Below, in pieces: positions 11,164-41,508 of a stretch of 64,000 nucleotides of DNA. The position numbers were made by a program, and so were the translations under genes. Numbering within the stretch: position 1 is the stretch's first letter; each line of letters begins with the position of its first letter. The DNA is from Minisyncoccota bacterium (GTDB taxonomy: Bacteria > Patescibacteriota > Minisyncoccia > Phycocordibacterales > Phycocordibacteraceae): NCBI GenBank assembly GCA_036405415.1, contig DASWXP010000002.1, forward strand, positions 556,450 through 620,449, given 5' to 3'. Under the pieces are notes generated by a model. It saw only the letters and a list, made by a program, of their open reading frames with translations, ran no database searches and was not told the DNA's origin.

Positions 11164-11297
11164 ATGGAGTATATAACCCGCTTGTTTGAATAATAGTAGC
11201 ACCGATTCCCCGGGGGACCACCTAATTGACATCCCATACTCTACTGGTGAAAAGAAATCACATCGCCTTGGGTATTCATTGTTATACTCAAGCCACA

Positions 11298-13101: not shown

Positions 13102-13133
13102 AGTGTGATATCGTGCGAAAAGCATACCACTTC

Positions 13134-13997
13134 ATGCAACATGCCATGAGCCACCTTACCCATATTTGGAAGAACCGACTGTCTAAATTCAGGGACAACC
13201 CAGGAGGCATTTGGCCGTTTCTTAAGAAGCGGCTCTACTACAACTTCGTTGCGGACCGCTATCTCGGCGCGTACAAGGATTTCCAATATTTGAATTACGA
13301 AGAGACTATCGACACTGCGATTCGCGAGAACAGGTCTGTTGTGCGTTTCGGTGACGAGCTCTTTGACATGCTCCAGGGCATTGGCTTGTACTTCGGGAAC
13401 TGGCGCCAGCGCTATCATCCCGAGCTCGCAGGCCGGCTCAAGGAAATCATCTCGTCGGAAGACGAGCGTCTCCTTATCTGTTTCAATCCGGAGCTCATAC
13501 TCAAGACTAGAAAGGAATTCCGCGACATGGGTATCCCTGAGCAGTATCAGTTCTGGACGAACTCGAAGATGTTCCTGAGGAAGTATTATCACCCACACAT
13601 TGTGTATGGCAGCGCGCTCTCGTTTCATACCCGCTATAATCCTGATCTGGATTTCGAGAAGCTCGGACGTTACTTCGCCACTAAGGATGTGATCATTGTT
13701 ACTTCGGATACGGCTCGGTTCGAGGGACTCTCTCTCGGTAAAAGCACTGCGTTCATAGAGGCGCCTGCGAGCGATGCCTGGGACCGGTACGCAGAGATCT
13801 ATCAGGAGATAGTCCGTCGCATTAAGGCGGGACATCTCTACACGAAAGACGTGCTCGTCATGGTCTCCATGGGAAGCGCTGCCAAGGTGCTTGTCTACGA
13901 TCTTACGAAGGCCGGATATGTGGCATGGGATACGGGCCAGTTCTTCGACTTAGCCTCAAAGAGGATCAATGCGCTCGGGGGCAGGTCAGCTTCCTAG
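13134..13997 (+). CDS. GT-D-type glycosyltransferase (DUF1792 family), paralog 2
   Basis: VRFGDE motif; shares motifs with 8600..9403; start ambiguous (13113/13134/13146). Confidence 0.5.
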   Translation: MQHAMSHLTHIWKNRLSKFRDNPGGIWPFLKKRLYYNFVADRYLGAYKDFQYLNYEETIDTAIRENRSVVRFGDELFDMLQGIGLYFGNWRQRYHPELAGRLKEIISSEDERLLICFNPELILKTRKEFRDMGIPEQYQFWTNSKMFLRKYYHPHIVYGSALSFHTRYNPDLDFEKLGRYFATKDVIIVTSDTARFEGLSLGKSTAFIEAPASDAWDRYAEIYQEIVRRIKAGHLYTKDVLVMVSMGSAAKVLVYDLTKAGYVAWDTGQFFDLASKRINALGGRSAS

Positions 13998-15350
13998 TGG
14001 GTTCCCAGGAAGATCAACAGCGAGTCTCGAGTCTCCCTTTTGAGGGGTCGAAGACCGTCGGACGAAGAGAATAAATAGAGGCACGAGACTGTAGGAGAGC
14101 ACTGTTGCATACGCCGCGCCGAGGATTCCGTATGCCGGTATCCAAAGTAGGTTGCAGACGATATTCACGGTCATGGGCACGAGCGCCGAAAGGACCAACA
14201 CAAGTCGCTTGTTCTTTGTGGTGAGATAGGTGTGGACGAGGATACTGAGCGAGGTACCAACGAACGACCATATATAGACTTGGAGCACGGGTATCGTGGC
14301 TGCGAATTCAGGGCCGTACAGGAGTGGCACGACAAACGGCGCGAGGAGCATCACGAACATGGAGATTCCTACGGGAATAGCGACGAATAGCCAGCTTATG
14401 CGGAGCATCCTTCTTTCGAATACGCGCTCGTCAGACCGGTGCGCGTTTACAATGGCGGGAAAGAGGGCTGATGCGATCGCGCCAGGAATGAAATTCCAGA
14501 GATCCGTAAGTCGTACCGCCGCATCATAAATGCCCACAGCCTCTGCATCAATAAAATGCTTGATAAATACCTGGTCGATGCGGGCATAGATAACTGTGAA
14601 CGCGCTCAGGAACATAATCGGAAGCGAGTCAGCGAGCAGGCGCCGTGCGAGCGTCGGCTCCCATACCCAGTCCCTGAGGCGGTTATGGAAGCGCGTCCGA
14701 TAGAGGTATACGTACATGACCGCATAAAGCGCCGGTTCAAGAAGGAGAATGAGTGCGAGGTATATCACTCCTTCTCCGGCGAGCATAACGCACACCTTGA
14801 GTATATTGAGCACTATCGTGGCCAGTATCGAGATGAGCGTTGGATACTTTGATTCGGCTCGCGCAAGAAATGCAAAAGAGATCACCTGGAATGGAACAAG
14901 AATGAAGGTACCAGCAAGTATGAGAATAAGAATGCGTGAGACGTCATCCGCGGCGACAGTCGCAGCAAGCACTCCCGCAACGACAGCAGTCAGGATCCCG
15001 GCGCCCATTCGCAGCACGAACGAAGTGCCGAGAAGCTGCGAGCGCTTCTCAGGCTCCTTGATGAGTTCACGGAAGAGGATGGTATCAAGCCCAAGTGGCG
15101 CCAAGAACCCAACCAGTCCTACAACGCTGAGCGCATAACTTATCTGCCCATAGTTTTCAGGTCCGAGGTTCCGAGCGATAAACAGGGTCGCTAGGAAGGA
15201 GATGCCGAGTGTAAGCATCCTCCCGCCTAGGAGCCAAGTGGCATTCTTGAAGTATCTTCGAAAACCCTGGTGTATCCAGGCCAGGCGCAGGAGCGCGAGG
15301 GGTCGAGCGAGGATGGGGAGACGGCTCATGAGATGGGTAAATCGTAGCAT
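13986..15350 (-). CDS. Wzx-like polysaccharide/oligosaccharide flippase (multi-pass membrane protein)
   Basis: About 12 predicted TM segments with polysaccharide-biosynthesis-protein-type N-terminus (KNATWLLGGRMLTLGISFL...). Confidence 0.55.
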   Translation of the reverse strand: MLRFTHLMSRLPILARPLALLRLAWIHQGFRRYFKNATWLLGGRMLTLGISFLATLFIARNLGPENYGQISYALSVVGLVGFLAPLGLDTILFRELIKEPEKRSQLLGTSFVLRMGAGILTAVVAGVLAATVAADDVSRILILILAGTFILVPFQVISFAFLARAESKYPTLISILATIVLNILKVCVMLAGEGVIYLALILLLEPALYAVMYVYLYRTRFHNRLRDWVWEPTLARRLLADSLPIMFLSAFTVIYARIDQVFIKHFIDAEAVGIYDAAVRLTDLWNFIPGAIASALFPAIVNAHRSDERVFERRMLRISWLFVAIPVGISMFVMLLAPFVVPLLYGPEFAATIPVLQVYIWSFVGTSLSILVHTYLTTKNKRLVLVLSALVPMTVNIVCNLLWIPAYGILGAAYATVLSYSLVPLFILFVRRSSTPQKGDSRLAVDLPGNPLGS

Positions 15351-15433
15351 CTTGGAAAGGGGTATTGGATATAACCTCGTTGCCCAGGGATTCGTGGCAG
15401 AAATCGGAAATCGAGTAGTATACTGGCCGCATC

Positions 15434-17614
15434 ATGAAAGACGCCGCCCGATGGACCGCTTTGCTAGCCTTGTTCGCGATCCCGTTCCTACCCTTATATG
15501 TATCGAATGAACTTTTCTTCCCGTTCATTACCGGGAAGAACTTCGCGTTCAGGATTCTCGTTGAAATCGCTTTCGTAGCGTATGGATTCCTCGCGCTTGT
15601 AGACAGACGGTATCGTCCGAAGTATTCGCATGTGTTGGCGGCATTCGGCGGGCTCGTTGCTTGGACAGCTGTTGCGAACATGCTCGGCGTGCTCCCGATG
15701 AAAGCGTTCTGGAGTAACTTCGAGCGCATGGACGGGTGGGTGACTCTGGTGCATCTCTTCCTATTCTTCGTCGTGGCGGGCGCAGTGCTTTCGGTTGAGC
15801 GGCTGTGGCGGCGCTGGTGGCTCTTCTTTGTATCTGTTGCGGCGGTAGTGTGTCTTTACGGACTGGTGCAGCTTGGGGGCGGTGCGGAAATCCACCAGGG
15901 AGGCGTGCGTCTCACTGGAACGCTCGGTAACGCTATCTACCTCGCGGTGTACCTCATGTTTGCGATATTCATTTCGTGCTGGCTTGCGGTCCGCTCTAAA
16001 GGCTGGCTTCGCTGGTCGCTTATCGGTTTTATAGCACTCGCGTTCGTCATCATGTTCTTCACCGGATCGCGCGGTCCGCTCGTCGGCCTCATTGCAGGCA
16101 CCATCTCCGGCGCGGGACTGTGGCTCTTCCTCGCTCGTAAGGAGTGGGGTAAAGGCGCTGCAGCGACCGGCATCAAGATTGCGCTCGGAAGCGTCGCTGC
16201 GCTCGTGCTTGCAGGCGGACTGCTGTTTTCGCTCAAGGATAGCGACACCGTTACCGGAAACCCGTTCCTTTCGCGTGCAGCATCCCTCTTCTCAGTGGGA
16301 AGCGAGCTCGAAGTTCGCGAAAAGCTCTGGGGAATCGCGTTCAAGGGTGTAGCGGAGGATCCGATTACCGGCTGGGGTCAGGAAGGGTTCAATCAGGTCT
16401 TCAACAAGTATTACGATCCTTCGCTCTACGATCAGGAGGCGTGGTTCGATCGTGCGCACAACATGTACATCGACTGGTTCGTTGCAGGCGGTATCCCTGC
16501 CGGGCTCCTATTCCTTGCGCTTCTCGGCCTCGGATTCACCGCGCTCGTACGCCTCCCGGGGGCGTCCCGTGCGGAGCGAGTATTCCTTGTTTCTGCATTC
16601 GTAGCATATGCAGTTCAGGCGATCGTAGTGTTCGACAATCTCTTTAGCTACGTACCGCTCATGATGCTCCTTGCGATGGCACATGCGCAGTCGGGCAGGA
16701 ATGTCCGCGCACTCAGTAATGCACCTGAAATGGATGCTGAGAGTACCCGGGGTTATGCAGTCGCGAGTGCGGGGGCTATCATCCTTATCGCCATCATTTG
16801 GACGGTGAATGTGTCAGGAATTCAAGCCGCCAATCATCTCGTCTATGCGCTTTCCTCAGGTCAGAGCGCCACATCGAGCCTTGCTCGATTCGAGGAAGCG
16901 CTCGCGGCAGACTCTTTCGCGTCACAAGAGATCCGAGAACAATTCTCTTCAGCCGCCACATCGCTTAGTGAGAACGAAGCCATACCGGAGCAGATTCGTA
17001 AGGAATTTCTCGTTCGTGCAGCGGAAGAGATGAATAAAGAGGTAGCTTCGTCTCCTAACGATGCGCGTTTGCGTGTACAGTACGCTTCGCTTCTCAAAGC
17101 AGCAGGGGACATAGAAGGAGCGCTAACACAGTATCAAGCGGCGCTCGCGCTTTCTCCGAAGAAGCAGGCAATCTATGTGACGCGCGGATTCATGTTCCAC
17201 GACCTTGGCGATAATGAGTCAGCTCAGCGTGACTTCATATATGCATATGAGCTCGATCCTTCTTTCCCGTCGCTCAATACCAGTATCGCTGCCGGCTTAA
17301 TAATCACAGGCGACGTGGCTAAAGGTAAGGAGATAGCCATGGAGGTATTCAGTACGACTACACCTGACGATGATTCGTTGTTCCTAGCATACTACCGGAC
17401 AAAGGCATGGAACGACCTTATCGCGGTGGCGCGTGCAGGAGTTCTTGCGCGCAGCAACGAGCCTGAGGCGCACTACAGACTTGCGCAGGCGTATGCTGCT
17501 GCAGGTCGTATGGCAGAAGCGCGCGCACAGATCGTACAGACAGTAAAGTCATTCCCTGCGACGCGTGAGCTTGGAGAAGCGCTCATGCAAGAGATCTTCG
17601 GCCAGGCACGATGA
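15434..17614 (+). CDS. O-antigen ligase/polymerase-family (Wzy_C) membrane protein with C-terminal TPR repeats
   Basis: Multi-TM N-domain with FFTGSRGPLVGL motif typical of O-antigen ligase family; C-terminal ~250 aa TPR-like repeats. Confidence 0.6.
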   Translation: MKDAARWTALLALFAIPFLPLYVSNELFFPFITGKNFAFRILVEIAFVAYGFLALVDRRYRPKYSHVLAAFGGLVAWTAVANMLGVLPMKAFWSNFERMDGWVTLVHLFLFFVVAGAVLSVERLWRRWWLFFVSVAAVVCLYGLVQLGGGAEIHQGGVRLTGTLGNAIYLAVYLMFAIFISCWLAVRSKGWLRWSLIGFIALAFVIMFFTGSRGPLVGLIAGTISGAGLWLFLARKEWGKGAAATGIKIALGSVAALVLAGGLLFSLKDSDTVTGNPFLSRAASLFSVGSELEVREKLWGIAFKGVAEDPITGWGQEGFNQVFNKYYDPSLYDQEAWFDRAHNMYIDWFVAGGIPAGLLFLALLGLGFTALVRLPGASRAERVFLVSAFVAYAVQAIVVFDNLFSYVPLMMLLAMAHAQSGRNVRALSNAPEMDAESTRGYAVASAGAIILIAIIWTVNVSGIQAANHLVYALSSGQSATSSLARFEEALAADSFASQEIREQFSSAATSLSENEAIPEQIRKEFLVRAAEEMNKEVASSPNDARLRVQYASLLKAAGDIEGALTQYQAALALSPKKQAIYVTRGFMFHDLGDNESAQRDFIYAYELDPSFPSLNTSIAAGLIITGDVAKGKEIAMEVFSTTTPDDDSLFLAYYRTKAWNDLIAVARAGVLARSNEPEAHYRLAQAYAAAGRMAEARAQIVQTVKSFPATRELGEALMQEIFGQAR

Positions 17615-24109: not shown

Positions 24110-24122
24110 GGATAAGATAGGG

Positions 24123-24149
24123 AAAAGGCCGGTTTGAAACCGGCCTTTT
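24123..24149 (+). terminator. rho-independent terminator
   Basis: aaaaggccgg-tttgaaa-ccggcctttt. Confidence 0.6.
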
Positions 24150-24188
24150 CTGTTATCAGAACTTCCTTCCAAGTACTGTTTATAAGCT

Positions 24189-25103
24189 ATGTTAACCGAG
24201 GCAAGAAAGCTATATAGTATATGCATGGATGAGATAACTATTGGTGACAAGGTCTATATCTCGTCAAAGCGCGCCGCAAAAATTACTGGTTATGCGAAGG
24301 ACTATGTCGGCCAGCTTTGTCGTGAGGGCAGGGTTGAAGCGCGACTGGTAGGCCGAAACTGGTATGTCCTGGAATCTGCGATCCGTGAGCACCGCTTCGG
24401 TTCTGCGCATGAATCCAGCAATGTAGCAGCTAGCTCTGAGGAGGTTCCTGTTGAGGATAGGGCAAATACGTGGCAGAAACCTACATATATACCTGAAAAT
24501 CCTTTGATGGTGCCAGAACTTGCCCAGAAGCCTGTTCAAGAGCCAGTTTCAAGCCCTGCGATAGCTGATATGCAGTCTGCTTGGAGGGAGTGGTTCTCCG
24601 ATAAGAAGACAGTTGATGCGCTTCCTGACGGATCTGAAGACTTTAAGGACGAATATCTCCCTGTAGTGCTTGAAAGTGCCGAGCCTGTAGAGATAAGAGA
24701 AGAGGAAACCGTAACCCTGCAAAGAATAGAGTCTCCAGTTGAGGCAAAAAAGCCTGAAAGCAGTGAGGAAAGTGAGGTTGAGATTCACAAATCCTACGCC
24801 TCTAGGGAGACGGGAGAGCTGGTACCGCATACCAGCATTCCTGTAGTCGACCTAACACCTAAGAGCCAGGGTAGAAGCAGGCCTGTAAAGCCACTAAATC
24901 CGGCAGCAACCGCTAAAAAACCTTCGGGCAGTGGTGTAACCCGAGCGCTCCTGATTGTTCTCGCTTCGGTAGCAGTGCTAGTAGCTGTTGTAGGAACCGG
25001 TAATGCCGACAGATACATTGGCACTACTAGTACCGATTCAGGACCACAGAAAGCGATTCTGGACTTTCTCGGAGGAAAGAGTAGCTATAAAAGTACCCTA
25101 TAA
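24189..25103 (+). CDS. bitopic membrane protein with N-terminal excisionase-type HTH (HTH_17-like), acidic linker, C-terminal TM helix and short exposed tail
   Basis: KVYISSKRAAKITGYAKDYVGQLCREGRVEARLVGRNWYV matches the HTH_17 pattern and the N-terminus of the giant ORF at 25688; TM ALLIVLASVAVLVAVVG near C-terminus; alternative start ATG 24225. Confidence 0.5.
   Translation: MLTEARKLYSICMDEITIGDKVYISSKRAAKITGYAKDYVGQLCREGRVEARLVGRNWYVLESAIREHRFGSAHESSNVAASSEEVPVEDRANTWQKPTYIPENPLMVPELAQKPVQEPVSSPAIADMQSAWREWFSDKKTVDALPDGSEDFKDEYLPVVLESAEPVEIREEETVTLQRIESPVEAKKPESSEESEVEIHKSYASRETGELVPHTSIPVVDLTPKSQGRSRPVKPLNPAATAKKPSGSGVTRALLIVLASVAVLVAVVGTGNADRYIGTTSTDSGPQKAILDFLGGKSSYKSTL
24213..24218 (+). 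promoter_or_regulatory. -10-like hexamer TATAGT 6 nt upstream of ATG 24225
   Basis: gctatatagtatatgc-ATG. Confidence 0.3.
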
Positions 25104-25147
25104 AATATAGATATCTCGTCTCGTATCAAAGAGATTAGATAAAACGT

Positions 25148-25183
25148 ATAGAACACCCTCAACTTATGTTGAGGGTGTTCTAT
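25148..25183 (+). repeat. perfect 16-bp inverted repeat, 4-nt loop
   Basis: atagaacaccctcaac-ttat-gttgagggtgttctat. Confidence 0.45.
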
Positions 25184-25310
25184 CAATTTAGATCAGCTAA
25201 ATAAAGGCTAACCACTAGCAAATATGTACAAAAAGTCATTCTGTAGGAATTAATACTCCGTAGACGGTCTCTTAATAACTGGCAAAAAATTAGAGATTAA
25301 GAGCAATTAA

Positions 25311-25348
25311 CGAGCCCTACATACCTATATATAGATATGTAGGGCTCG
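25311..25348 (+). repeat. 38-bp near-perfect palindrome centred on CTATATATAG
   Basis: cgagccctacata-c-ctatatatag-a-tatgtagggctcg; candidate operator. Confidence 0.45.
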
Positions 25349-25687
25349 TACAAATTAAACTTCTGCGCGCAATTACTAATAAATACTTAGTTAGTCCGAA
25401 TAACCGATACGCTCCTATATATAATTGTCTACTTACACACGAAACTAGTTCTGGTAGGAATTTTGTATCCCTTCTGTTGCAAGGGAGTTGAATCTAAGGG
25501 TGGTAATTCTCTTGGATTTGAGTTTAGTGTCTATGCTGCGATGAATTTTTTCGTAATCAGTAGTAATGGATCTTGTTGGCAATTTTTTTCATGATGAGTG
25601 CCTGAAGAATATCCACAAAGAAACATACTAATTAAAAGAAATATCAAGGTAAACTGTAGTTAATTCGGATATCCGACCTACTGCACC

Positions 25688-28600
25688 TTGAACAAACTTC
25701 TTCAAGAAAAATTAATTTCTACGAAAGACGCCTCTGCTCTTTCTGGATACACTTCCGACTATCTTTCACGGCTATGTCGCGAAGGAAAGATTGATGGCAC
25801 GCAGGTCGGAAGAACATGGCTTGTAGATCGTGATTCGCTTGAGAAGTTTATTGCAACGCAGATTGATCGAAAGGCTGAGCTTGCAGAATCGCTTGCACGC
25901 GAGCGCGAGCGCGAGTATCGCTTGAGCAACACGAAATCCATCTCGATGACTCGTTCGATGGAGCGGGGAACGCGGGATGCGGTCAACTCTGTGGTTGCAG
26001 CGTTTGCAAAGGCACGGCTGCCTCACGGTATGCCGGCATTCTCAGGGACTGCTGTTGCTATGGCACTTACCGCAATCGTACTTGCTGGTAGCGCAGCAGC
26101 CGCAGGATCTGGAGTGGTCGCGCGCATGGGTGCCGGTCTTCTCGCGGCAGCGCTCGAGGCTCGAGTCCAGGTACTTGAAGGAGCACACTCACTTGCGATT
26201 GATTCATTAGCGCATCGAGAGACGCTTGCAGAGACAGCGCGCGAAGACCTTGCGCTTGATGAGAATGCATTTGCAAACGTGCAGAGCATAAAGCTTGAAG
26301 AAGTGTCTTCGGCACTTACGCTAGCGATGCGCGACGTGCATGCCCCCGTAGCCCCAACGCAGATTGCATACGAGCGCGCAGAAGAAATCTCTGCTACCTA
26401 TGCGAGCGATACTACGTTTGCAGAAAGCGCAAAGGCAATTGGATCGGCAGTACAGAATCCTAACGTTACAGCCTCTGTTGTGGCTGATGGTCTTATGCGC
26501 ACCTACGCATCGGTTGGTGCGCTTGCGCTCCGCGACATTGAGACGACGCTAAGCGCACATGAGGATGCGGTCACTGCAGCAGGCGAAGGATTGTTCGCGC
26601 TAAGCACCGGCATGCGCGATGGTGCACGTACGCTACCGCTTGCGGTAGGAAGTGCTTTCATAAGAGCGAGCGACGCGTCATTGAGTCTCTACGAACAGGG
26701 TGTCTATGGGTTCGCAGCGCTCTCCCAGGATGTCCCGCATACTCTCGTTGCTGCAGCGCTCGATACTGGCTCCATGGTTGGGGGACTCACACAGCTTGCG
26801 GTCACAGCTGCCCCTCGAGCGTATGAAGATGGGATGATTTCATTCAGTGAGGAGACCTCGCAGCTTGGAATGCGCATATCTGAAGGATCCTTTGCGCTCG
26901 GGGCCAATTCACACGGTCTCGTTTCAGGCCTCTTGATCGCTGAAGACCGCGCAATCGCAGGATTCATGCGCTCTGCTAGCGATACGGTTGCTCTAGCTCC
27001 CGCAGGTACCGGAAGCGCTTCAGCACAGCAGGGAATCGATCTGGTACCAAGCGCCATAACGAACGAAGTGCTGGGAATCGTAGGCAATATCGCGCTCTCG
27101 ATCGAGAACCTGGAGGGAGACATGCTTACCGCGTCTCCGCTCGCGTCTCTTAACCTCGACGCATTCGTTCCAGGATTCCTCAAGAATGTGACCGCGGTGC
27201 TTGCTCGCGCATTTGATAGCGCGCTCCATGGAATCCTCGGACCGCTCGCGGGCTTCTTTGGCGCAGGCGAAGAGGCGGGCATCGCGATCATTCCTGGAGA
27301 CGGTGCGAACATCCCGGGTCCTGGTGACCGCGGCTCGAGTGAGGCTTCGATCGTGTACAACGGGCCGGTAACAATCATCCGTAATGAGTATCCTTCCGTA
27401 ACCTACGGAGGTGTACCTCAGGCATACGTCGATGAACGATTCGACTTCCTCCGTCGCACGCTCTACAACCGCATCGAAGACGTTGCTGATGACGATGATG
27501 TCGGCATCACGACGCTCGACGGCCAGACCGGCAATGACATGTTGCTTAATAATCCGACGATCGTCGGAGGGACCATCACCGACAGCGAACTCGATGTCGC
27601 AACCTCGACCGTAACCGGCTCGTTCACCGTAAACGGGAACGCATCGATCACCGGCGACCTCACTGCTACGAATGCAACCACGACGAATTTCTACGCGACT
27701 GCCGGCTCCTTCGCCTCGGCGACCATCGATGTGCTTACCGCGCCGTCTGCGACCATAGCGAATCTCATCGTCACGAACAGCACCACCACGAACGCGACGT
27801 CGACCAATCTCTACGTTTCCAATCTCGCAGGCCTCGTAGCGACGATTACCGATGCGTTCTTTACGAACGTCACCGCATCGCTCGCGACGCTCACGAACGC
27901 GGTCGTAACGACGCTCACCGCTACGAATGCGACACTCACGAACGCCACGTCGACCAACGCGACCACCACCGGGTCGCTCGCGCTTACGTACGTGACCCCG
28001 TCACGCCTCCTGTCCGTAGACGCGTTCGGGAAAGTCGTCGCGACCAATCTCGCGTCATGGGTAACCGGCTCAGCGAACCAGATCACGGTGACGGATACGG
28101 GCGCAGGCGGCATCCAGCTCTCGCTCCCGTCAGTACTCGTCTTCGGCACATCCTCTCCGACCACGCTTGCCGGAAACGGCGCTACCAGCACCTTCGGCGG
28201 CGGCATCTACGCGCCGCGCATCGAGGCGGGAGAGTACATCGCAGGCCCGTACGTCCTCGCCACCTCGACCACCGCAACCTCGGCGTTCTCAGGCAACATA
28301 GCGATCGGTCGGAACGCCACGATCGGTACCAGCGCGTCCGATTCGCTCGTCGTGAATGCGACCGTCGGCTCTAACTTCGTCCCGTCTCTTAATAACGCGT
28401 ACGATCTTGGCTCCGCCGCGAATAACTGGCGCCGTATCTACGTAGATGAAGTGGTAGCGAACAACCTCTCCGCAGCGTCCACCTCGATCGCAGGGACGGT
28501 ATCGAGCGACTTCTCCATAAACTCTGATAACGCTTCGAACGATACGGAGGACATGAGCCTCACGTTCAATCGCGGCGTCGCGTCCCCGAACGCTATCCTC

Positions 28601-31600
28601 GCGTGGAACAGCACGACGAAGCGCTTCGAGTTCAACATGCCGGTCTTCTCCGCAAACGGCATCTTCACAAACGCGACCACGAGTAACCTAGCCGTTACGA
28701 ACTTCACGCTCGGCGGTTCCACCTTTACCTCGCTCCTCGGATCAGGACTCTCGAACGTTGGGGGCGCACTTACCGCAGACCTCGGCGCGCTCGACGACAC
28801 GTTCTTCAGGCAGGACGGGAACTCTTTCGGCGCTACCGCAATCCTTGGCACGAACGACAATAACAATCTCGCGTTTGAGACGAACGGGTCCACGAAGATG
28901 ACCCTCCTTGCCAACGGCTACCTCGGTATCGGCACCACCTCTCCGACGACCCCGCTTTACGTCTCGAGCGACTTCCCGCGCATCACCATCGACAGGAATA
29001 CGAACAACAGCGGCAACTCGCTCATACTCTTCAACCAGGAGTCCGTACTCAAGGCCGGGATAGGAATCGCCGGAGGAACCAACGGCGTGATTGCTGGAAG
29101 CGTATCCGGAGACCTCGTCGCGCGCACTCAGGGAGGGAACATGTACTTCTCGAACGATGGCACGGGAGCGACCTCGCAGCTCTCGATTATCAATAACGGG
29201 AACGTCGGTATCGGTACCGTGACGCCATCGACGCTCTTGCATCTTCATACGGCCGGCGGAGGTGACGCACCTCGCCTTAAGTTCACGAACGGCACCACCG
29301 GCACGACCGCGACAGACGGCGCGTTCGTGGGCATCTCGAACACCTCGCAGCTCGATGTGTGGAACTTCGAGAGCAATTCCTTGCGGTTTGCCACAGCGAA
29401 CACCCTGCGGATGGTAATCGATGCTACGGGAAATGTAGGAGTAGGAACCTCGTCTCCAGCTTTCGCGGCGATATCAGCCCGGTATCTGGCGGTTGACGGG
29501 TCAAGTCTCGGAGCGGATATTCCTGGTGCGGTCGGTGCCGGAGGCAACATCACAGGAACTACGAATAACATCGGCCAGTTTGCGTTCTACAACAACGCGC
29601 TTTCAACCGCAGAGAAGCGCAACGCGACGATTGTAGGAACGAACGACGGGGCGCTCAATAGCGGTCTCATCAGATTCTTCACGGCGAATGCGGGCACGCT
29701 AGGCGAACGCATGCGCATCACGTCAACCGGCAACATCGGTATCGGCACCACAACTCCGGATCGAATGCTCTCTGTGGCGGGTACGGGACTCTTCACCGGC
29801 CTCACGACCTTCCTCTCCGGCTTTGACATCGGAGGCTCGACGTTCACGTCGCTTCTCGGGAGCGGCCTCACTAACGTAGGCGGCGCGCTTACGCTTGACC
29901 GCACGGGAGACTGGACCGGAACATTCGATGGACAGGAGGGGTCGTACTATCTTGCGCGCGCGAACCATACCGGTACGCAGCTAGCGTCTACCATCTCTGA
30001 TTTCGCAAGCACCGCGCGCGGACTCTTCAGCTCGACCGCGACGGGCCTTACCTATACTTCAGGCACGGGCGTCTTTTCTCTGACATCAGGCTACGAGATT
30101 CCGCTGACCGCTTCAACTACCAATTGGAACACCTTCTATAACACCCCTTCGACCCGCATCACCGCAGGTTCTGGCCTTGCATGGGCAGGCAACACGCTCT
30201 CAGCAGACCTTAATACCCTCGACGACACGTTCTTCAGGCAAGACGGCAATTCCTTCGGAACGACCGCAACGCTTGGTACGAATGACAGCAATGCGCTCGC
30301 ACTTGAGACCAATGGATCAACCCGGCTCACCATCACGTCCTCAGGGAACGTCGGTATCGGAACGAGCTCGCCGACGCATGCACTGTCCGTAAACGGAAAT
30401 GCCTATATACAAGGAGGAATCGGAAGCGGCATCGAGCCGGCTTCAGTGCCGGGCATACTCTTGCTTAACCGCACGGGCGGCGATCCGGCCATAGTGTTCT
30501 ACGAGAATGGTTCCCAGGTCGGACAGCTGCGCGGAGACGGCACCAACAACAAGATCCAGTTCAGTAACGCGCTCGCAACCCGCTTCCCGTTCACTCTTGA
30601 TCTGACGACAGAGAACATCGGTATCGGCACCACAACTCCGGAGGGCCGCCTTACGCTTGTGGCGAGCTCGACAGGAGACTCGCTTGTCATCGCAAGCTCG
30701 ACCGGCGCTCGGCAGCTTACGGTCAATACGAATGGCTCCCTAATCTTCTCTTCAAGCGGGCAGTCCTACAAGCAGGTTACGGGCGTAGATGAGGACGGGC
30801 CTTCGATCTTCCTTAACCGCACGCTCGGCAATGAAGCCACGGCAAACGAGCACGGCATCATAGACCGCAACACCTTCACGCGCGCGACCAAGGCCTATAA
30901 CTCGTACGACTCACAGCCGTACTTTACGGGTACGAACGACTACGATCACTACGCAGGATTCCAAGCCCGGGGCGCGATGAACTCGACCGGCACGCTCAGC
31001 CGTTATCACGGCTTCGCATCGACGCCGAATGTCGCCGCTGGTACGGTGACGAACCTGTACGGCTACAGCGTCTACGACGCGGTCGGTGCCGGAACGGTGA
31101 CGAACAACTACGGCCTCCACGTACAGAACCTTACGAAGGGAACGAATAACTTCGCGATATACACCGACGGAACTACAAAGTCCTATTTCGGCGGAAACGT
31201 CGGCATCGGTACCACATCTCCAGCGTCACTACTCCACGTCTCTTCTAACACATCTACGAGTTTTACCGTCGAGCGCGATAGCGTTACTGATCCTGGAAAG
31301 ATCCAGCTCATTACTGAATCGGCAGAGAACAGCATTTACTCGAGAACTAACACAACAGCCGCAAAGAACTTGCGATTTGTAATCGGTACTGCCGAGCGAA
31401 TGCGCATCGATACGTTAGGCAATGTCGGTATCGGAACGACGTCGCCATCCCGACTGCTCTCCGTTGGTGATGACGGAACATACTCCGCGTACTTCTCCGG
31501 TCGCGTGGGTATCGGAACGACATCGCCTACCCGCGGTCTAGTTCTTACTTCTGCAACAACGGTTAACGCAGCCCTCCAGCTTGCTTATACGGCCTCAGGC

Positions 31601-34600
31601 GGACGCACCTGGGACATCAATCCGTTCCGAAACGGCGTGAGCAATGCCGGATTCGAGATTTACGATGTCACCGCAGGAGCGAGCCGCATTGCGATTGACG
31701 CGTCAGGGAACGTAGGTATCGGCACTACATCTCCTTCTGCGAAGCTTGATGTGTACGGGAACGCAATCCTTTCATCGGCAGGCTCTACCCTCAGTTTCGT
31801 TAAGAGCGGCGCAGGAGAGACGCCTGCAATCCTCTTTACGCACTCGACGAATGCCGGCGGCTCCCGCATAGTCTCGAGCGGCTCGAACGCGCAGGCGCTG
31901 ATCATCGATCTTGATCAAGATGCAACCTCAAATTTCGATGCATTCAGCATCAGGGCGAACAATACGAGCACGCGATTCCACATTGATAATGCGGGGAATG
32001 TCGGTATCGGCACCACATCTCCATTCGCCAAGCTTCATGTATATGGCGGCGCATCAGGAGTTACTACGCCTTCTGCTACCGCAGACGATTTCGTTGTTGA
32101 AGGCAGCTCGACGAGCCAGAACGGCTTTTCGCTCCTCGGTCCCGACAGCGCGTACGCTTACCAAGTATTCGGTTCTCCCTCAGACAGCTTTGGCGCGTTC
32201 TCGCGGTGGAACTTTAATAATAAGCTTTTTGAAATAGGAACCGCAGATGACACCGGTGCCGCAGACCTTGCCTTCGTGACCGGAAACTCTTCCGAGAAAA
32301 TGCGCATTCTTGATAATGGGAATGTCGGTATCGGCACAACCACGCCAGGGCAGCTGCTCCATGTATATGGCGGAACGAACCCGGCTATCCGCGTTACCGG
32401 AAGCGGCAACACGAGCGCGTACATGGACATTGCAACCGATGGAACCGGCACGGCTCAGACGCGATACATAACAGGGAATACGGCACGGTGGGCCGTAGGT
32501 GTCGACCCGGCAGCGAATAACAATTTCGTGTTCGCGAATAGCTCCGCTGTTACGAGCGGTCAAAGGATGGTGCTTACGACTTCTGGAAATCTCGGTATCG
32601 GCACTGTCGCGCCGCAGACGGCACTTTCTTTCGCGACAACGTCTGCCGCATCCGGCATAACGCTCTATCAGACAGCTGACGAGACGACGAATTACGCGCG
32701 GGGACGCATGTACTACAACGGAAGCGTGTTTACGCTTCGCACGGAAAAGGCAGGATCAGGAGCCGATACGCCGCTCAGTATCTACCCATCAAACGGCATC
32801 GCGAATATCTACTTCTCAACATTAGGCACAGATGGAAATACCGGCTTCGTGCAGATCGGCGCTGCCAATAACACACAGAACCGCATCAGCGTGCATCTCG
32901 GTGTCGGCTCGCACGGCGCTTCTGTAGGAACGCAGACACAGGTCGCTATCCAGCCTACGATTGCGCAGGCTGGAACTGCGAACTACATTGCGCTCTCCAT
33001 CAAGCCGACCGAATCATCGCTCGGATCCGGAAGCAGCTATCTGTTCCAGGCGGGGACCGCAGCCAATCCTGGGATGTTTAACATCACGAATGCTGGAAAC
33101 GTGGGTATTGGAAACTCGAATCCTGGCTCGCTTCTGAATGTTTCTACCGATACGGTCGGCGCAGCAGCTTTCATGGTCAATACTGTAACGGGGGGCCAGG
33201 CACGATGGCAGATTACAGCGGCAGGTTCGCCAACAACCTCGCGCTTCATAATGTCTGCGCGAGACAGCTCGAACAACACTGCTGTGTCCATCGATCCAAC
33301 GGGAACAACCTATTTCAATACTGGAGGCAATTTCGGTATTGGCACTTCCAGCCCGTCACGCAAGCTTACGGTTGAAGGCGACGCATCTGTCTTGTTCCGC
33401 CTCGATCGAACCACGACGGTTAACAGCTATAATACGATTCAATTCAACAGCCCTTGGACAGGTGGAAGCTACACAGCACAGATAGGAACGAAGGCAGAAA
33501 GTACGTATGCCAATAGCTACACGTACATCTCGGCTGATAATACGAACATTCACCTCGCGGTAACCACTGCGGGTAACGTGGGCATCGGCACCGTCAGTCC
33601 AACCGACAAGCTTGCGGTGCTCGGAGACACGAATGGATACATAAACGCTCGCGTACGCAATGATAATGCCGGATCTTCAGCGTATGCGATGATCGGCATC
33701 AATGCTTCAGGCAACTCCTGGGGCATGCGCATGGGGTCTGCAGCAAACAACAGCAACAGGCTTGATTTCGTCTCAGACGCCTTCGGTACGCCTGTAGAAA
33801 GGTTGAGCATCACGACAGCAGGAAACGTCGGTATAGGTACCACGACTCCTACCGCACTGTTCCAGGTAGGAAGCGCGACTCAACGCGGCTTCAAAGTGTA
33901 TGGAAATAATAGTCCTTATGGGACGGTGCTCGCCGGTGATGCTGGTGGTTGGGCGTTTGGGTATAATTTTGAAGGTAATGCAGGAGCAGCTCTCGGTGGA
34001 TTCGGAGCGTTAGGGAACTCAAATAGCCTGGACAGTTACTATATCGGTACGTTCGCGAATCAGAGGATGACTATCCTTAGCGGGGGTAATGTCGGTATCG
34101 GGACTACAAGCCCGTACGCTGGACTCACGATTGCCCGCGGAGGCGGTACTGCAGCATTTGCCGACACAATCCTTTCGCTAAACAGCTCATCGAATGTTGA
34201 GCGATTCAGATTCTCCGGAGACGGTTCGATGCAGTGGGGAACAGGTGCGGCAAACGGCATCCTTTCTTGGGATACAAATCTCGCGATAGTGGGGGGAAGC
34301 GCAGGGAACGCCCTTTCTCTACGTGCGAACAATGCAGACGTTGTCCGCATAACAACTGCAGGCAACGTCGGCATCGGCAACTCGGCGCCAACCACACCAC
34401 TTGATACGCAGGGCATAATCACGACGCGCTCCGCGGCAGCGGATACGCCGGGCGCGCCAACCGAAAGCATTCGCATGTCGCTTACGGGATATTCGCCAAC
34501 AGACAGATATAGGAATTCGATATTCAACTCGGTATCGACCATCCCCGCTTCTTCGGTAATGCAGTTCAGGGTTAATAATGGTGATACGACGCAGGCGACG

Positions 34601-37600
34601 GTAATGACGCTGCTGGGCAATGGAAACGTAGGCGTCGGCATCACGAATCCAAGCTACCGATTCACCGTTCAGGATACGACGACAGACGGTATCGCAGGAC
34701 GATTCTCTCAGTCAGGAACGGGCACGCCCTTTGGTGTCTACTCGTCAGCAACAGGCGCGGGAACGCAGAACGTTGCCGGCTACTTCCAGACAAGCGGCGC
34801 AACTACGAATATCGGCGTAAGTGCTGACGTTGCGTCAGGCGCGAACAACTACGCCTTCTACGCAGCCAATACTGCAAAATCGTACTTCGCAGGCAACGTC
34901 GGCATCGGCGTTACGAGTCCCGCAAGCCAACTCACGGTTGGAAAGACAACCGGAGGTGTCATATCGATCACGACCGCAGGAACCGCGGGTACCACCGCCT
35001 CGCCGCTTCCGGCGACCCTCAACTTCGTTGGGTACGGAGAAGTCACCAAGGGCGCTATCAGCGTGCAGGACCGAACCGGAAACGTCCTCGGAGGATGGAT
35101 GAAGTTCCAGACCGCCGACAGCTCTGACGTGCTTCAGGACCGAGTAATGATAGATAGGGCGGGCAACTTCGGTATCAATACGATGACGCCGCAGGCAACG
35201 CTCGTGGTGGGCGGCGCGCAGAGCGGCAATGCAGGCCTCGAGATCGTTCCAGGCTCCGGCATCGTCGCGCAGTCGTACAACCGAAACACAAGCGCGTATG
35301 CAAGCCTCAGCTTCGACGCGTCAGCAATCGCATTCCGCCCGAGCGGCTCGACCATGCTTACGGTCAACGGCGCAGGAGCTGCGGTGGGAACCGCGAGCGT
35401 CTCTGACCGCTTCGTCGTGGAGGTCGCGACCAATAAGCGTCTCGGTGTAGAAGAGATCACGAGCTCGGCAATCAGCGACTTCTCGACGGGCGGCGCGAGC
35501 ATCCAGTTCTCGCGCGCGAGCGATGGGGCAGATAACCTGACCGGTATATTCACCTACAACAATTCCGGAAACACGAGCATTAACCTCGCCATGGCAGCAC
35601 GCAGCGACTTGGTGTTCGCAGCTGGCGGAGGCGCAGCGTACACGAACTCTCCAGAGCGCATGCGCATAACGAGTTCCGGTAACGTCGGTATCGCTACGTC
35701 CACTCCTGGCCAGGCGCTCACGGTTGCAGGAAGCACGTACATAACCGGAGGTCTTGGCATCGGTAACGTCAACACGACTGCAGGCTCGCTCCTCACCACC
35801 TCGCACATAACGATGGGAACGCTCTCGCAGTTCTCTGCTGCAGGCGGCTCAGCACTCACGTCGCCAGCAAACGGCGTATGGCGCGTAACCAACAACGCAG
35901 GAACCGACTTCAGTCGCTTCCAGTTCGGCGGAGGCACTTCAGCATTCCCGTCTATCAAGCGCAATGGCGCAGGTCTCGACTTCCGCCTGGCGGATGATTC
36001 CGGATATGCGACCACGACCCATCAGGGCGGTCTCTTCCTTGGAAATGTCGGTGTGGGAACCACGACGCCAGGGTACAGGCTTAGTGTTGGAGGCGATATC
36101 AATTTTACCGGCAGCCTTTATCAGAACGGCGTCGCGTTCGGCGGCTCGTCACAGTGGACGACGAGCGGAAGTAACATCTACTACAACACTGGCAATGTCT
36201 CGATTGGTACGACCACAACGTCATCCACAACGAAGCTCTTCGTGGTAGGTCCGAACACTGGTACTGTCGCATTCTCGGTTGGCGATAGGTTTAGGGTTGA
36301 TGGCCTAGGAAATCTTTTCTGGGGCCAAACCGCAGGAACTGTTAGCGGCATTCTTTCATCTGCTGCGAATGGTGACGTAACGATGGGTTCTCAGTTTGCT
36401 AATAGAGACTTGTACATTCAGACAAGTGCATTTAACGCTATCCAAATCTACGGAGGTGTTACCGGCACGCTAGGAAACATCAAGCTTGGCGCATATGGAG
36501 CGGGTACACTCCAGACAGACGGTGCCGGAAACGTCACTGCTTCATCGGATGAGCGCCTCAAGGATATTCAAGGCAATTTCTCGAGAGGGCTTGCAGATCT
36601 CATGGCCATAAATCCGATTAATTACCGATGGAACGCAGCTTCAGGGTTCGATACTGAAGGCATGTACAGCGGATTCTCAGCACAGAACGTCAAAGATTCT
36701 ATCCCTGAAGCGGTAGGAACAGATCCGAGGGGATATCTGACGTTGTCGGATCGACCAATACTTGCTGCTACCGTGAACGCAGTGAAGGAGCTCAATGTCC
36801 GCACGCTTTCACTCGCACCAGCGGCTCAGAACCAGGAAGCACACTCGCTCGCGGTATCCGCAGACGCGTCCGTAGCAGGCCTCCTCACGGTCTCCGGCAC
36901 CGGCTCATTCCTCGGTACCGTAGAAGCAGCGTCATTCCTGACGACTGCAGACGCAGGACTTCCTGAGAACGTGCTCACGGCAGGTCAGGCAGACCTCTAC
37001 AAGATGGCGCGCTTCGCCATCTCAGAGATCAAGGACCTCAAGGAGCGCACGGACCTCCTTGCGGTACGCATCGACGACATCGAGACCCGTGTTGCCGCGC
37101 TCGAGGCACAGGGACAGAGCGCCTCCTCGACCATGGCCGGGGCCGTTGGCCTCACGGCAAGTTCCCTCAAGAGCGCGCTCGAATCCTTCGGTATCTTCAT
37201 CGAGAACGGCATCGCGCAGTTCAATACGCTCGTATTCCGACAGCTCGCGGTTGCCAAGGACGAAGCGGGCGACTCTTCCGCAGGCAGCGTAACCATCCTC
37301 GCGGGCAACACCGTGACGCAGGTGCAGAACCCGTACGTGCTCCCGACCTCAAAGGTATTCGTCACCTTCACGAGCCCGGTGGTTGGCGCGTGGTACATCA
37401 GCCACAAGGAAGCAGGCAGCTTCCGCGTGACGCTCGCCGAGTCCCAGCCTTCTGACGTCTCCTTCGACTACTTCATCCTCCAGACCGAAGGCCAGCTCGC
37501 AAGCCCGGGCGCCGCAGGACCGAGTCAGCAGAACCAGGTCCCGACGCCGGCACCGCAGCCGTTCCAGCCGGTGTTCCCGCAGGACGGGGGAACCACGACG

Positions 37601-39498: not shown

Positions 39499-40992
39499 AT
39501 GAAAACCACACTATTCGCAAGAATCATCTCAGCTTCCTCAGCGCTTGCTCTGGCGACTCTCATTTTCTTCATGGCAGCTACGAATGCGCTTGCCTGCGGG
39601 ATGACCTGTAATGGGGACTACTTCGCTGCTGGTACGCCCGGAGCAGTTGCAGAGACGGGCAGGTACGACACGGCGGTGTGCATGGGGTCTGTCTCGATAG
39701 AAGAATGTCCTGGCGGAACCGATTATGGAGGCGGGGGCGGAGGTGGTGGTGGCGGAGGCGGCAGCTATGTCGACCTTACCGCAAGCGACATAACACCGGT
39801 CATCACGACTAGCGGCGAAGCACAGACATACTACGCAACCGTCTATAACGGCCCGACGATCGCAGGGAACACTACGACCCTGTTCCAGCGGACCGAGAAT
39901 CCCGGTGACGTGAGCGCGCCAGTGGTGAGTATGGTCGCGACAGCGAGCATGAACCCATACTCAGCGCGCACCTTGTCGGCAAGCTATACCCGTACGGGCG
40001 GTTCGTTCTACATGCGCGCATGCGCAGACGCGAACAATCAGATCGCCGAGATCAACGAGAATAACAACTGCGGTCCGTGGACGCTCATAACCGTCATGCC
40101 TTCTGCGCAGCAGGCGGATCTCGTCGCAGGAAGCGTGAGCGTCTCGAACGCGGTCCAAGGCGCGGCTGCGACCCTGAGCGCGAGCGCGTCGAATATCGGT
40201 GCTGGCGCGTCCGATAGCTTCCCGCTCTTGTTCCAGATCTCAGAGACCGGAGCACGCACTAACAGCGCGTACCTCGGGGGACTCGGTTCCGGCGCTTCTG
40301 CGGGCGGTACCGGCTCGTACAAGTTCCCGGATTTCGGGGTGTACAACGTGCGAGCCTGCGCGAACTTCGACACGGCCTGGAATCCGGTCGCGGCCGAATC
40401 GAGCACCGCGAACAACTGCGGTCCGTGGACCGAGGTCACGGTCTCGCCCGTGGTAACGCCGGCGCTCTCGTGCTCCGTATCGGCGACATCGGTAGCGGTT
40501 GGCGGATCGGTCACCTATAGCGCGAACCCGTCAGGAGGCGCCTCTGGTCCCTACACCTGGACCGCGTCTGACGGCGGGAGCTACGGAACCGGCTCGACCG
40601 CATCCCGATCCTTCAGCGCTCCCGGCACGTACGCGATGAACGTCGATACGTCCTCGACCGCGGTATCCTACTGCCCGAACGTGAGCGTCGTATCGACCGC
40701 ATGTAGCGCTGCGACAACTGATCTCTCCATAACCGCGACCCCGTCACGCGTGCGTGCGGGACAGACCTCGACCATCTCCTGGACCGCGTCCGGCGTGAAC
40801 GGCGAAGGCGCAAGCTGCACCGTCTCGGGCCCTGGCGTCTCCTGGACCTCAAGCGTAACGGCAGCGCCGCAGTGTTCCGCAGGCGGATCCTCAAGCGCTA
40901 CGATCGCGACCCAGAGCACCTACACCATCACGTGCGCCGGCCAGTCCGAGAGCGTCGTGGTGAACGTGATTCCGCAGATCATCGAGTTCTAG
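39499..40992 (+). CDS. secreted CARDB-domain adhesin-like protein A (Gly12 tract; C-terminal Cys-containing module ending NVIPQIIEF)
   Basis: Signal peptide, NNCGPWT motifs twice, C-terminal ~300 aa paralogous to the protein at 49982..51940. Confidence 0.6.
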   Translation: MKTTLFARIISASSALALATLIFFMAATNALACGMTCNGDYFAAGTPGAVAETGRYDTAVCMGSVSIEECPGGTDYGGGGGGGGGGGGSYVDLTASDITPVITTSGEAQTYYATVYNGPTIAGNTTTLFQRTENPGDVSAPVVSMVATASMNPYSARTLSASYTRTGGSFYMRACADANNQIAEINENNNCGPWTLITVMPSAQQADLVAGSVSVSNAVQGAAATLSASASNIGAGASDSFPLLFQISETGARTNSAYLGGLGSGASAGGTGSYKFPDFGVYNVRACANFDTAWNPVAAESSTANNCGPWTEVTVSPVVTPALSCSVSATSVAVGGSVTYSANPSGGASGPYTWTASDGGSYGTGSTASRSFSAPGTYAMNVDTSSTAVSYCPNVSVVSTACSAATTDLSITATPSRVRAGQTSTISWTASGVNGEGASCTVSGPGVSWTSSVTAAPQCSAGGSSSATIATQSTYTITCAGQSESVVVNVIPQIIEF

Positions 40993-40995
40993 TCC

Positions 40996-41487: not shown

Positions 41488-41495
41488 GAGCGCGC

Positions 41496-41501: not shown

Positions 41502-41508
41502 AGGGTGC

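Follow-up and report, generated by a model that had tools for sequence, protein, structure and literature searches.

Two adjacent genes and their common N-terminal module

The window analysed here, a stretch of 64,000 nucleotides from a Minisyncoccota bacterium (assembly GCA_036405415.1, contig DASWXP010000002.1, positions 556,450 to 620,449), contains two neighbouring genes, one small and one giant, whose products open with the same kind of helix-turn-helix (HTH) module. Judged by their predicted topology, both products are single-pass membrane proteins with the N-terminus in the cytoplasm, and both carry one lineage-specific subfamily of the excisionase/MerR-type HTH. The genes and the parts of their products are, in window coordinates:

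24225-25103, + strand: small gene, 292 amino acids, start MDEITIG; predicted bitopic, nearly tail-anchored membrane protein
24225-24404, + strand: small protein residues 1-60, excisionase/MerR-type winged HTH (AlphaFold2)
24555-24599, + strand: small protein residues 111-125, conserved amphipathic helix IADMQSAWREWF (AlphaFold2 and family alignments)
24930-24995, + strand: small protein residues 236-257, predicted single transmembrane helix (AlphaFold2 and Kyte-Doolittle)
24996-25100, + strand: C-terminal tail of the small protein, about 35 residues, conserved, predicted extracellular
25688-37981, + strand: giant gene, 4,097 amino acids, TTG start; tail-fibre-like surface protein
25712-25861, + strand: giant residues 9-58, winged HTH of the subfamily shared with the small protein
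25829-26011, + strand: giant residues 48-108, long helix running on from the last HTH helix (AlphaFold2)
26027-26122, + strand: giant residues 114-145, sole hydrophobic segment of the protein (Kyte-Doolittle scan)
36545-36715, + strand: giant residues 3620-3676, Peptidase_S74 intramolecular-chaperone domain, 31.1 bits (cut-off 22), beginning SDERLK
37634-37849, + strand: giant residues 3983-4054, bacterial surface Ig-like domain (Bact_surface_Ig-like), 78.8 bits

The initial annotation of this region had stated that the N-termini of the two proteins align position for position, and BLASTP bears this out with a gapless alignment in which 18 of 37 residues are identical (49%) and 27 of 37 are positives (E 2e-11). 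Its assignment of both modules to the HTH_17 or Xis type holds in part. Against HTH_17 (PF12728, cut-off 27 bits) the module of the giant scores 33.2 bits when taken alone (E 6.5e-8), 28.9 bits within a 300-residue fragment and 24.5 bits within the whole protein, and against the TIGR01764 'excise' profile (cut-off 28.8 bits) the giant remains below threshold with 26.1 bits. The small protein does not reach the HTH_17 cut-off, but an excisionase-type fold is modelled for both proteins, and HTH_17 is matched at E <= 0.01 by 68 of 73 small-family members. A module profile derived from the two types of module together (alignment A2) gives 99-122 bits on the small and giant open reading frames (ORFs) as opposed to less than 6 bits on every other ORF of the window, which places the similarity of the modules well beyond chance. 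The same profile yields 65-122 bits on members of the family and only 11 bits on an ordinary soluble MerR/HTH_17 protein of a related locus, and the module thus represents a distinct subfamily. Its signature reads GY..DY[LVI]..[LM][CAV]R.G... followed by GR.W, and the residues invariant in both families (Y21, D24, Y25, R31, R42 and W44 in the numbering of the giant) are located in the recognition helix and the wing.

The AlphaFold2 models, that of the small protein being built with 73 homologues, show a strand-helix-turn-helix-hairpin wing-helix fold in both modules with predicted local distance difference test (pLDDT) values above 90. In the small module (pLDDT 90-95) the order is strand-strand-helix-helix-strand-strand-helix, with strands at residues 3-6, 9-13, 39-42 and 45-49 and helices at 14-21, 25-34 and 50-58, and the giant's module (pLDDT 92-95) follows the same order. 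Foldseek searches of the PDB, with template modelling scores (TM-scores) normalised to target length, returned Xis, BldC and RdfS structures at TM-scores of 0.5-0.78 and root-mean-square deviations (rmsd) of 1.5-2.5 A overall. The small HTH superimposes on Xis 4j2n and BldC 6ama with TM-scores of 0.68-0.77 (rmsd 1.7-1.8 A), and the giant HTH gives 0.71-0.73 with Xis, 0.78 with BldC, and 30-34% identity at an rmsd of 2.1-2.4 A with TraN. For the two modules together the values are 0.68-0.73 (rmsd 1.6-1.7 A) with Pukovnik Xis and 0.70-0.78 with BldC. Further structural neighbours are RdfS, Tn916 Xis, RacA bound to DNA, GlnR, CarH and CbpM.

On the sequence level, the sole PDB match of the module profile is the TraN-like protein AM32, which is hit in both of its repeats (E 5e-5), and matches in PHROGs are to generic excisionase or DNA-binding families. 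Neither protein matches a MerR profile, as opposed to a soluble 80-residue neighbour at the related locus L089 that matches MerR, MerR_1 and HTH_17; neither matches Trans_reg_C at E <= 1; and the small protein and its 73 relatives show neither HTH_25 nor DUF4115, HTH_17 being their only Pfam match. An identity of the small protein with MamR was considered and rejected, the match being confined to the HTH and scoring 17.8 bits against a cut-off of 100. By analogy, the module would bind double-stranded DNA, because nearly all of its relatives do so, because the residues common to both families lie in the recognition helix and wing, and because the tandem copies seen in related loci recall TraN, in which an internal dimer of two excisionase-like HTHs binds double-stranded DNA (PMC4981023).

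The small protein is 100% identical to NCBI VGE53_03515 (292 amino acids; from a Candidatus Paceibacterota metagenome-assembled genome (MAG), 622-kb contig). Its mechanically called ORF spans 24189-25103, and family alignments set the conserved start at the ATG at 24225. The 12 codons preceding this start (24189-24224) are also kept in some homologues (M..EAR..Y...). The same interval contains the promoter-like hexamers TTAACC and TAGTAT, which are separated by 17 nt and end 4 nt before the ATG, and the mRNA of the small gene may be leaderless. The recognition helix of the HTH, GYAKDYVGQLCREGRV, is nearly invariant across the family. The rest of the protein finds no match in Pfam, NCBIfam, PHROGs or the PDB. 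It consists largely of an acidic linker, some 175 residues long and for the most part disordered, that is predicted to be cytoplasmic, spans the distance from the HTH to the transmembrane helix and carries conserved short motifs resembling docking sites. Embedded in this linker is the amphipathic helix 111-125, in which M116, Q117, A119, W120, W123 and F124 are invariant in the family alignments; the linker motifs include this helix and LPDGS..F..EYLP. The protein has exactly one hydrophobic segment (residues 234-262 of 292, Kyte-Doolittle 2.65), and given this position it is almost tail-anchored.

In the giant protein the last HTH helix runs on into a long helix that bridges the roughly 55 residues to the hydrophobic segment. 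The sequence of this helix is conserved up to residue 77 (AESLAREREREYR), with Q58, K62, A66, L69, R73, E74, E76 and Y77 invariant, and the model is confident to about residue 78. The anchor itself is modelled with low confidence as a helix of residues 121-139. The giant has no cleavable signal peptide and a single hydrophobic segment, and we read residues 114-145 as a putative signal anchor that leaves the N-terminus inside.

The initial annotation had a transmembrane segment following the module in both proteins, and one hydrophobic helix is indeed present in each; it follows, however, only after a stretch of some 55 residues in the giant and a far longer one in the small protein. Its proposal that the module is cytoplasmic agrees with the positive-inside rule in both families. 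Lysine plus arginine average 2.74 in the N-terminal as compared to 0.82 in the C-terminal flank of the small-family transmembrane helix, the N-terminal flank being the richer in 68 of 73 members, and the respective averages for the giant anchor are 2.18 and 1.0 in 77 orthologues, of which 48 are richer and 7 poorer on the N-terminal side. The N-terminus of either protein is on this ground predicted to be cytoplasmic.

HTH_17, Peptidase_S74 and Bact_surface_Ig-like are the Pfam domains of the giant. Past the anchor the protein is rich in T, G, A and S and contains 21 G-x-[VILF]-G-[IV]-[GAN] motifs spaced about 91 residues apart. Being long and repetitive and having a Peptidase_S74 domain towards its C-terminus, it belongs to the phage-tail-fibre/tailspike-like class, and relatives are annotated as 'tail fiber domain-containing protein' or 'trimeric autotransporter adhesin'. 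The giant is thus, as far as its domain content tells, probably a trimeric surface fibre of the phage-tail-fibre type. From the S74 domain onwards (36545-37981), about 420 residues lie beyond that domain, including the Ig-like domain and a Pro/Ala-rich tail; self-cleavage at S74, if it occurs as in phage tailspikes, would free this whole C-terminal part.

The giant contains a single cysteine, C30 (25775-25777), which is located in the recognition helix of its HTH (LCREG), and the only cysteine of the small protein, C32 (24318-24320), is likewise in the recognition helix. The small family has this cysteine without exception, and in some giants A or V takes its place. It probably occupies a core position, and a redox role is conceivable.

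Distribution and genomic setting of the pair

The small protein has 1,418 homologues at E <= 1e-3, with full lengths of 270-330 amino acids, and every named source is from Patescibacteria or Paceibacterota. Two homologues of 43-51% identity reproduce the gene order secA-obg-gatB-small-giant, with giants of 4,187-4,288 amino acids that open with the same module. A scan of one genome per GTDB species yielded 80 loci, labelled as Paceibacterota, Kaiserbacteria, Parcubacteria or Minisyncoccia, in some cases automatically as 'Saccharibacteria', and in one as a 'Bacillota' MAG. In 78 of these 80 species loci a small-family gene lies immediately upstream, and on the same strand, of a large ORF bearing the HTH; at one exception, L026, just 783 nt are available upstream of the match, too little for the small gene. 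The large ORFs encode 508-2,022 amino acids where their end is visible and more than 2,000 otherwise. The module is thereby conserved in orthologous giants, as the initial annotation had expected. Altogether, then, an HTH_17 match was found, the predicted topology places the module inside the cell and the giants retain it, so that on none of the three points on which that annotation had staked its case did the outcome go against it.

The position after gatB is retained in more distant lineages, where the number of HTH copies varies between one and three per protein and between two and three per locus. Three Kaiserbacteria-type loci have two copies on the large protein. At locus L086 a small protein with one HTH is followed by a giant of 7,214 amino acids with two HTHs, S74 and Ig-like domains and, behind it, by a second HTH-bearing giant, and at L088 the small protein has two HTHs and the giant one. 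In Taylorbacteria-type loci a small protein with two HTHs is followed by three small ORFs and then by a giant of 5,975-7,725 amino acids that has no HTH and a signal-peptide-like N-terminus; the giants without HTH are those of L089 and L090. At L089-L094, which are Taylorbacteria-type and related loci, a soluble, divergently transcribed MerR/HTH_17 protein of 80-106 amino acids is encoded between gatB and the tandem-HTH membrane gene. At L089, L090 and L092 the three small ORFs located between the HTH membrane gene and the next large one encode 224-344 amino acids, and one of them has a weak match resembling a WxL-interacting protein.

An exhaustive profile search over 1.84 billion representative proteins places 9,539 protein clusters in reach of the module profile at E <= 1e-3 and 4,677 at E <= 1e-10. 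Of the best 148 clusters, 147 contain two copies of the module and one contains three, the top ranks being biased towards two-copy proteins because bit scores add. A hydrophobic segment lies behind the last copy in 139 of these 148, the median distance being 107 residues, and the others are mostly short fragments. Lengths are mostly 300-420 amino acids, with a few of 2,732-7,214. Every named member of the module family comes from Paceibacteria lineages. Word-indexed homologue searches with the giant N-terminus returned merely five and one proteins, owing to the low complexity of the sequence and the shortness of the query. Proteins of the pair are annotated just as 'hypothetical' or 'helix-turn-helix domain-containing'. 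The pair is widespread, and its two genes probably belong to the core of Paceibacteria.

Upstream of the pair in the window lie a glycan cluster, a gene for a Wzy-like protein, murB, secA, obg and gatB, and downstream lie genes for GAPDH, CARDB proteins and sugar metabolism. The surface-glycan cluster (5163-17614) encodes glycosyltransferases, a flippase and the Wzy-like protein, which has TPR repeats, and the region 39499-51940 encodes two CARDB-domain surface proteins and an SLT transglycosylase.

No integrase was found when the 27 predicted proteins of the window were scanned against Pfam, and tblastn against 50,697 phage genomes gave no match. Among 2.9 million viral contigs only two weak relatives turned up. 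On one high-GC IMG/VR contig (L095, 4770-6583) a tyrosine integrase gene is immediately preceded by a soluble Xis-like ORF containing the motif SGYTADYLGRLVREGKI; this type may be the mobile-element ancestor of the module. A phage origin was rejected on account of the missing phage-genome match and of the few and weak viral relatives. A true excisionase or recombination directionality factor is excluded by the lack of a mobile element and of an integrase among the 27 scanned proteins, by the transmembrane segments of the proteins and by the fixed housekeeping synteny.

The intergenic spacer and its cis elements

The region between the two genes contains the following features:

25104-25687, no strand assigned: spacer between the genes, AT-rich, 32-38% GC as compared to about 58% in the window
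25148-25183, no strand assigned: hairpin just 3' of the small gene, -27.2 kcal/mol, z -8.9, terminator-like
25311-25348, no strand assigned: 38-bp palindrome, stable hairpin, -26.4 kcal/mol, z -9.1
25609-25617, + strand: DnaA-box-like element ATATCCACA, family consensus TTATCC[A/C]CA
25651-25656, + strand: -10-like box TAAACT, family consensus TAnAAT, putative promoter of the giant gene
25664-25677, no strand assigned: 14-nt element TTCGGATATCCGAC, the core of which is a 12-bp perfect palindrome TCGGATATCCGA (25665-25676)

An AT-rich spacer is present in all 83 loci, with a median length of 571 bp and a GC content averaging 15 points below that of the locus, and only its first 40 nt and its last 90 nt, approximately, are conserved. 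A strong hairpin is also found after gatB (24122-24150) and, together with the hairpin behind the small gene, it indicates that each gene of the pair probably has a transcript of its own, even though the two are consistently neighbours.

Even between species with just some 50% identity in their proteins, these final 90 nt or thereabouts are conserved as nucleotide sequence. The consensus consists of TTATCC[A/C]CA, about 19 nt, CCGAAAT, about 7 nt, TAnAAT, TAGTTAA-TTCGGATATCCGAC and then, directly in most loci, the ATG. A conserved block TA.aAT.TAgtTAATTCGGaTATCCGACaTG is present in 74 distinct loci, and TTCGGATATCCGAC, located between the -10-like box and the start codon of the giant gene, is found with at most two mismatches in 72 of 83 loci. 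The palindrome TCGGATATCCGA is unique in the window. Allowing one mismatch, it occurs 65 times in the 784 kb of the 80 loci as compared to 3.5 expected, and 59 of these 65 matches fall within 120 nt upstream of the giant's HTH. Taylorbacteria-type loci, the giants of which lack the HTH, have no copy at up to two mismatches. Variation of the palindrome is centred on its middle four bases and changes in a single arm are uncompensated, a pattern more in keeping with a protein site than with an RNA stem; as RNA the element forms just a 4-bp stem (-4.2 kcal/mol). The 14-nt element is a candidate operator or, alternatively, a candidate hairpin of the 5' untranslated region (UTR).

The DnaA-box-like element lies about 33 nt upstream of the -10-like box and recurs at the equivalent position in L005-L084 and L086. 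In 77 of 79 loci the 160 nt that precede the giant's HTH contain exactly one + strand copy of its octamer, which is near chance frequency elsewhere and does not occur before the small gene. At L089 it is the tandem-HTH small gene that has the motif in front of it. The promoter region of the giant gene lacks a good -35 hexamer, and a factor bound at the DnaA-box-like site, conceivably DnaA, may therefore activate the fibre gene. We tentatively read the cis elements as a putative promoter with a candidate operator. An origin of replication in the spacer was rejected, as there is a single DnaA-box-like site and TTATCCACA-like sites are not enriched in the window (10 as compared to 6 expected).

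The initial annotation had pointed to the 38-bp palindrome at 25311-25348 as the DNA target of the modules. This proposal was given up: 28 nt of the palindrome are common only to L003, L004 and L009, which represent one species, so that it is found in one other species only and is merely a very stable hairpin, and the conserved element is the one at 25664-25677 instead. A small ORF or a small RNA in the spacer was likewise rejected, since only the ends are conserved and Rfam offers nothing credible. The tRNA-Asn (GTT) called by ARAGORN at 25445-25521 on the + strand has an odd anticodon position and is probably a false positive; it has no Rfam match at E <= 1, and no tRNA is found in the spacers of 30 related loci.

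Possible roles of the membrane-bound modules

What would a DNA-binding-type module do at the cytoplasmic base of a surface fibre? We tentatively favour the view that the pair is a conserved chromosomal two-gene cassette of Paceibacteria encoding membrane-tethered DNA-binding proteins, of which the small one acts on the giant gene. Provided that the module retains binding to double-stranded DNA, both proteins would be DNA binders held at the membrane. The small protein, with its near-invariant recognition helix and its flexible linker, would serve the giant gene as its dedicated regulator or organiser at the membrane and would act at the promoter or 5' region of that gene, TCGGATATCCGA at 25665-25676 being the likeliest site. 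The recognition helix of the small protein is identical in 56 of about 80 loci and that of the giants varies; since helix and palindrome are both nearly invariant, we propose the small protein as the reader of the site. The giant's HTH, held on a short rigid helix just beneath the membrane, might join the small protein on the same DNA or compete with it. In this way the amount or state of the assembled fibre could be coupled to the expression of the 12.3-kb fibre gene. Paired modules would mimic the internal HTH dimer of TraN, the pairing being provided by the two proteins, by tandem copies or by a trimeric fibre.

Several observations speak against this view. The small protein scores only 19.6-23.6 bits with HTH_17, and the net charge of the modules is low, averaging +2.0 in the small and +1.6 in the giant family and being 0 in the giant of the window. 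Co-variation between recognition helix and palindrome is uninformative as both are nearly invariant, the spacing of about 8 bp between the half-sites of the palindrome is small for a dimeric HTH, and at the RNA level the element can fold into a small 5'-UTR hairpin. Moreover, the DnaA-box-like site suggests that another factor also controls the giant promoter. CbpM uses the same fold to bind protein, and an HTH combined with a transmembrane segment need not mean a regulator: RodZ, the product of a conserved core gene, has an N-terminal cytoplasmic HTH and one transmembrane segment, and its HTH binds MreB. Finally, the pair lies among core housekeeping genes (secA, obg, gatB and murB), a neighbourhood that could point to a structural role in the cell envelope.

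Some of these points are shared by the possible, if rather unlikely, alternative that the HTH has been repurposed for binding protein in the manner of RodZ with MreB or of CbpM with the J-domain of CbpA, and either links the small protein to the cytoplasmic end of the giant or docks both on a conserved cytoplasmic partner, without any role at DNA. CbpM is among the structural neighbours, the charge of the modules is low, the pair is set among core envelope and secretion genes, and the cytoplasmic linker has its conserved docking-like motifs. Furthermore, nearly all residues of the small module are invariant, beyond the putative DNA face, and such near-total invariance suggests several interaction surfaces. 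However, all other close relatives in structure and sequence bind DNA, the residues common to both families are of the DNA-contact type in recognition helix and wing, and the tandem copies resemble the DNA-binding internal dimer of TraN. Nor is RodZ itself a relative of the small protein: it contains an Xre-type HTH_25 and a C-terminal DUF4115, both of which are absent from the small protein (and from its 73 relatives), and it differs in the position of the transmembrane segment and in the layout of the linker. The tethered regulator and the repurposed anchoring module, the two possibilities named in the initial annotation, remain the two leading readings.

Might the modules bind DNA with low specificity or a preference for AT-rich sequence, and so act as general tethers of the nucleoid to the membrane, comparable to RacA, without regulating genes? 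We regard this as doubtful. Xis and BldC-type proteins bind AT-rich DNA in arrays, a long AT-rich spacer adjoins the giant gene in every locus, and the family is large and core-gene-like. RacA in complex with DNA is a structural neighbour, and the Bacillus subtilis protein, with a MerR-like winged HTH followed by a long helix, tethers DNA to the envelope and so resembles the giant in layout; it is, however, soluble, reaches the membrane via DivIVA and has neither a transmembrane segment nor an ectodomain. The invariant recognition helix and the invariant, position-specific palindrome argue for a specific site instead, and the sequence of the spacer itself is not conserved.

It is improbable that the HTH is mainly a topogenic or sorting device which keeps the N-terminus in the cytoplasm so that the next helix, as a signal anchor, exports the giant ectodomain, which corresponds to the second alternative of the initial annotation. 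A giant with one hydrophobic segment and no cleavable signal peptide, and the presence of secA in the conserved neighbourhood, would suit such a device, but the Taylorbacteria-type giants have a signal-peptide-like N-terminus and manage with no HTH, the small protein has the most conserved module yet almost no ectodomain, and the strict conservation of the recognition helix would be left unexplained. Equally speculative, and to our mind hardly more than an outside chance, is the idea that the giant HTH binds, with the small protein's help, to the 5' end of the gene encoding it, so that the 12.3-kb gene is docked at the membrane and the ectodomain of about 3,950 residues is transcribed, translated and exported in physical coupling (a dedicated 'transertion' device), or that the fibre relays contact with a host to the chromosome through its DNA-binding base. 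A mobile-element relic in the form of a true excisionase, an artefact of assembly or annotation, or a chance likeness of two generic HTHs can safely be set aside: although a viral contig has SGYTADYLGRLVREGKI in a soluble Xis-like ORF beside a tyrosine integrase, the independent assemblies of 78 out of 80 species show the pair in an unchanging order of housekeeping genes, the 27 scanned window proteins include no integrase and the searched phage genomes no homologue, and both the pairwise E value and the distance of the family from an ordinary HTH_17 protein in profile score stand against it.

Returning to membrane-tethered DNA-binding proteins as the favoured view, how does the pair compare with known systems? 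A census of transmembrane transcription regulators (TTRs) lists 50,302 proteins, of which 56% are single-pass and 151 contain HTH_17 (PMC10269533), and by the definition used there, a DNA-binding domain and at least one transmembrane region in one polypeptide, both proteins of the pair are predicted TTRs. TTRs such as ToxR, TcpP and CadC resemble them in having a cytoplasmic N-terminal DNA-binding-type domain, a single transmembrane segment and an extracellular part. The ToxR type, however, combines an OmpR-type winged helix (Trans_reg_C) with a compact sensor domain, whereas the modules of the pair are of the excisionase/MerR type and the ectodomains comprise about 35 or about 3,950 residues; lacking Trans_reg_C, the proteins of the pair are not relatives of ToxR/CadC-type proteins. 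In the 'co-component' cassettes ToxR/ToxS and VtrA/VtrC, adjacent bitopic membrane proteins cooperate at the membrane (PMC9214523). There the HTH is confined to one partner and the other is a periplasmic co-sensor, different from the pair with the same HTH on both.

The closest solved relatives, TraN of pIP501 and AM32 of pAMbeta1, share the tandem arrangement with relatives of the window proteins, which carry two to three copies. TraN, however, is a small soluble plasmid protein without a transmembrane segment, and the window proteins each have one HTH copy and such a segment. Excisionases and BldC (Pukovnik and Tn916 Xis, RdfS, BldC) have the fold of the modules (TM-score 0.68-0.78, rmsd 1.5-1.8 A) and belong to the same neighbourhood in Pfam and TIGRFAM, but are small and soluble. 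Excisionases, moreover, act together with the integrase of a mobile element, whereas the pair is accompanied by no integrase, mobile element or soluble form. With MerR-family regulators the giant shares the long helix after the HTH, though no match to MerR or MerR_1 is found in the pair. The initial annotation was aware of no described system that matches. This stands for the family as such, as in the literature on bacteria of the candidate phyla radiation (CPR), with incomplete coverage, we found no paper on it or on an HTH on a giant surface fibre; it does not stand for membrane-tethered HTH proteins in general, which are a described class. Membrane-tethered HTH proteins are thus known, and it is this family and its fusion to giant fibres that appear to be undescribed.

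A life in attachment to other cells is assumed for Patescibacteria, and it has been proposed that giant surface proteins serve them for this attachment (PMC8080830). The cassette described here puts a DNA-binding-type domain at the cytoplasmic base of such a fibre as well as on a dedicated partner, in company with two sharply conserved cis elements, and the pair may link giant surface fibres to the chromosome. If the modules bind protein, they would be the second case, after RodZ, of an HTH recruited to the organisation of the envelope. If they bind DNA, they would constitute a large and unusual group of membrane-bound regulators and provide a direct physical link between the surface fibre and the chromosome.

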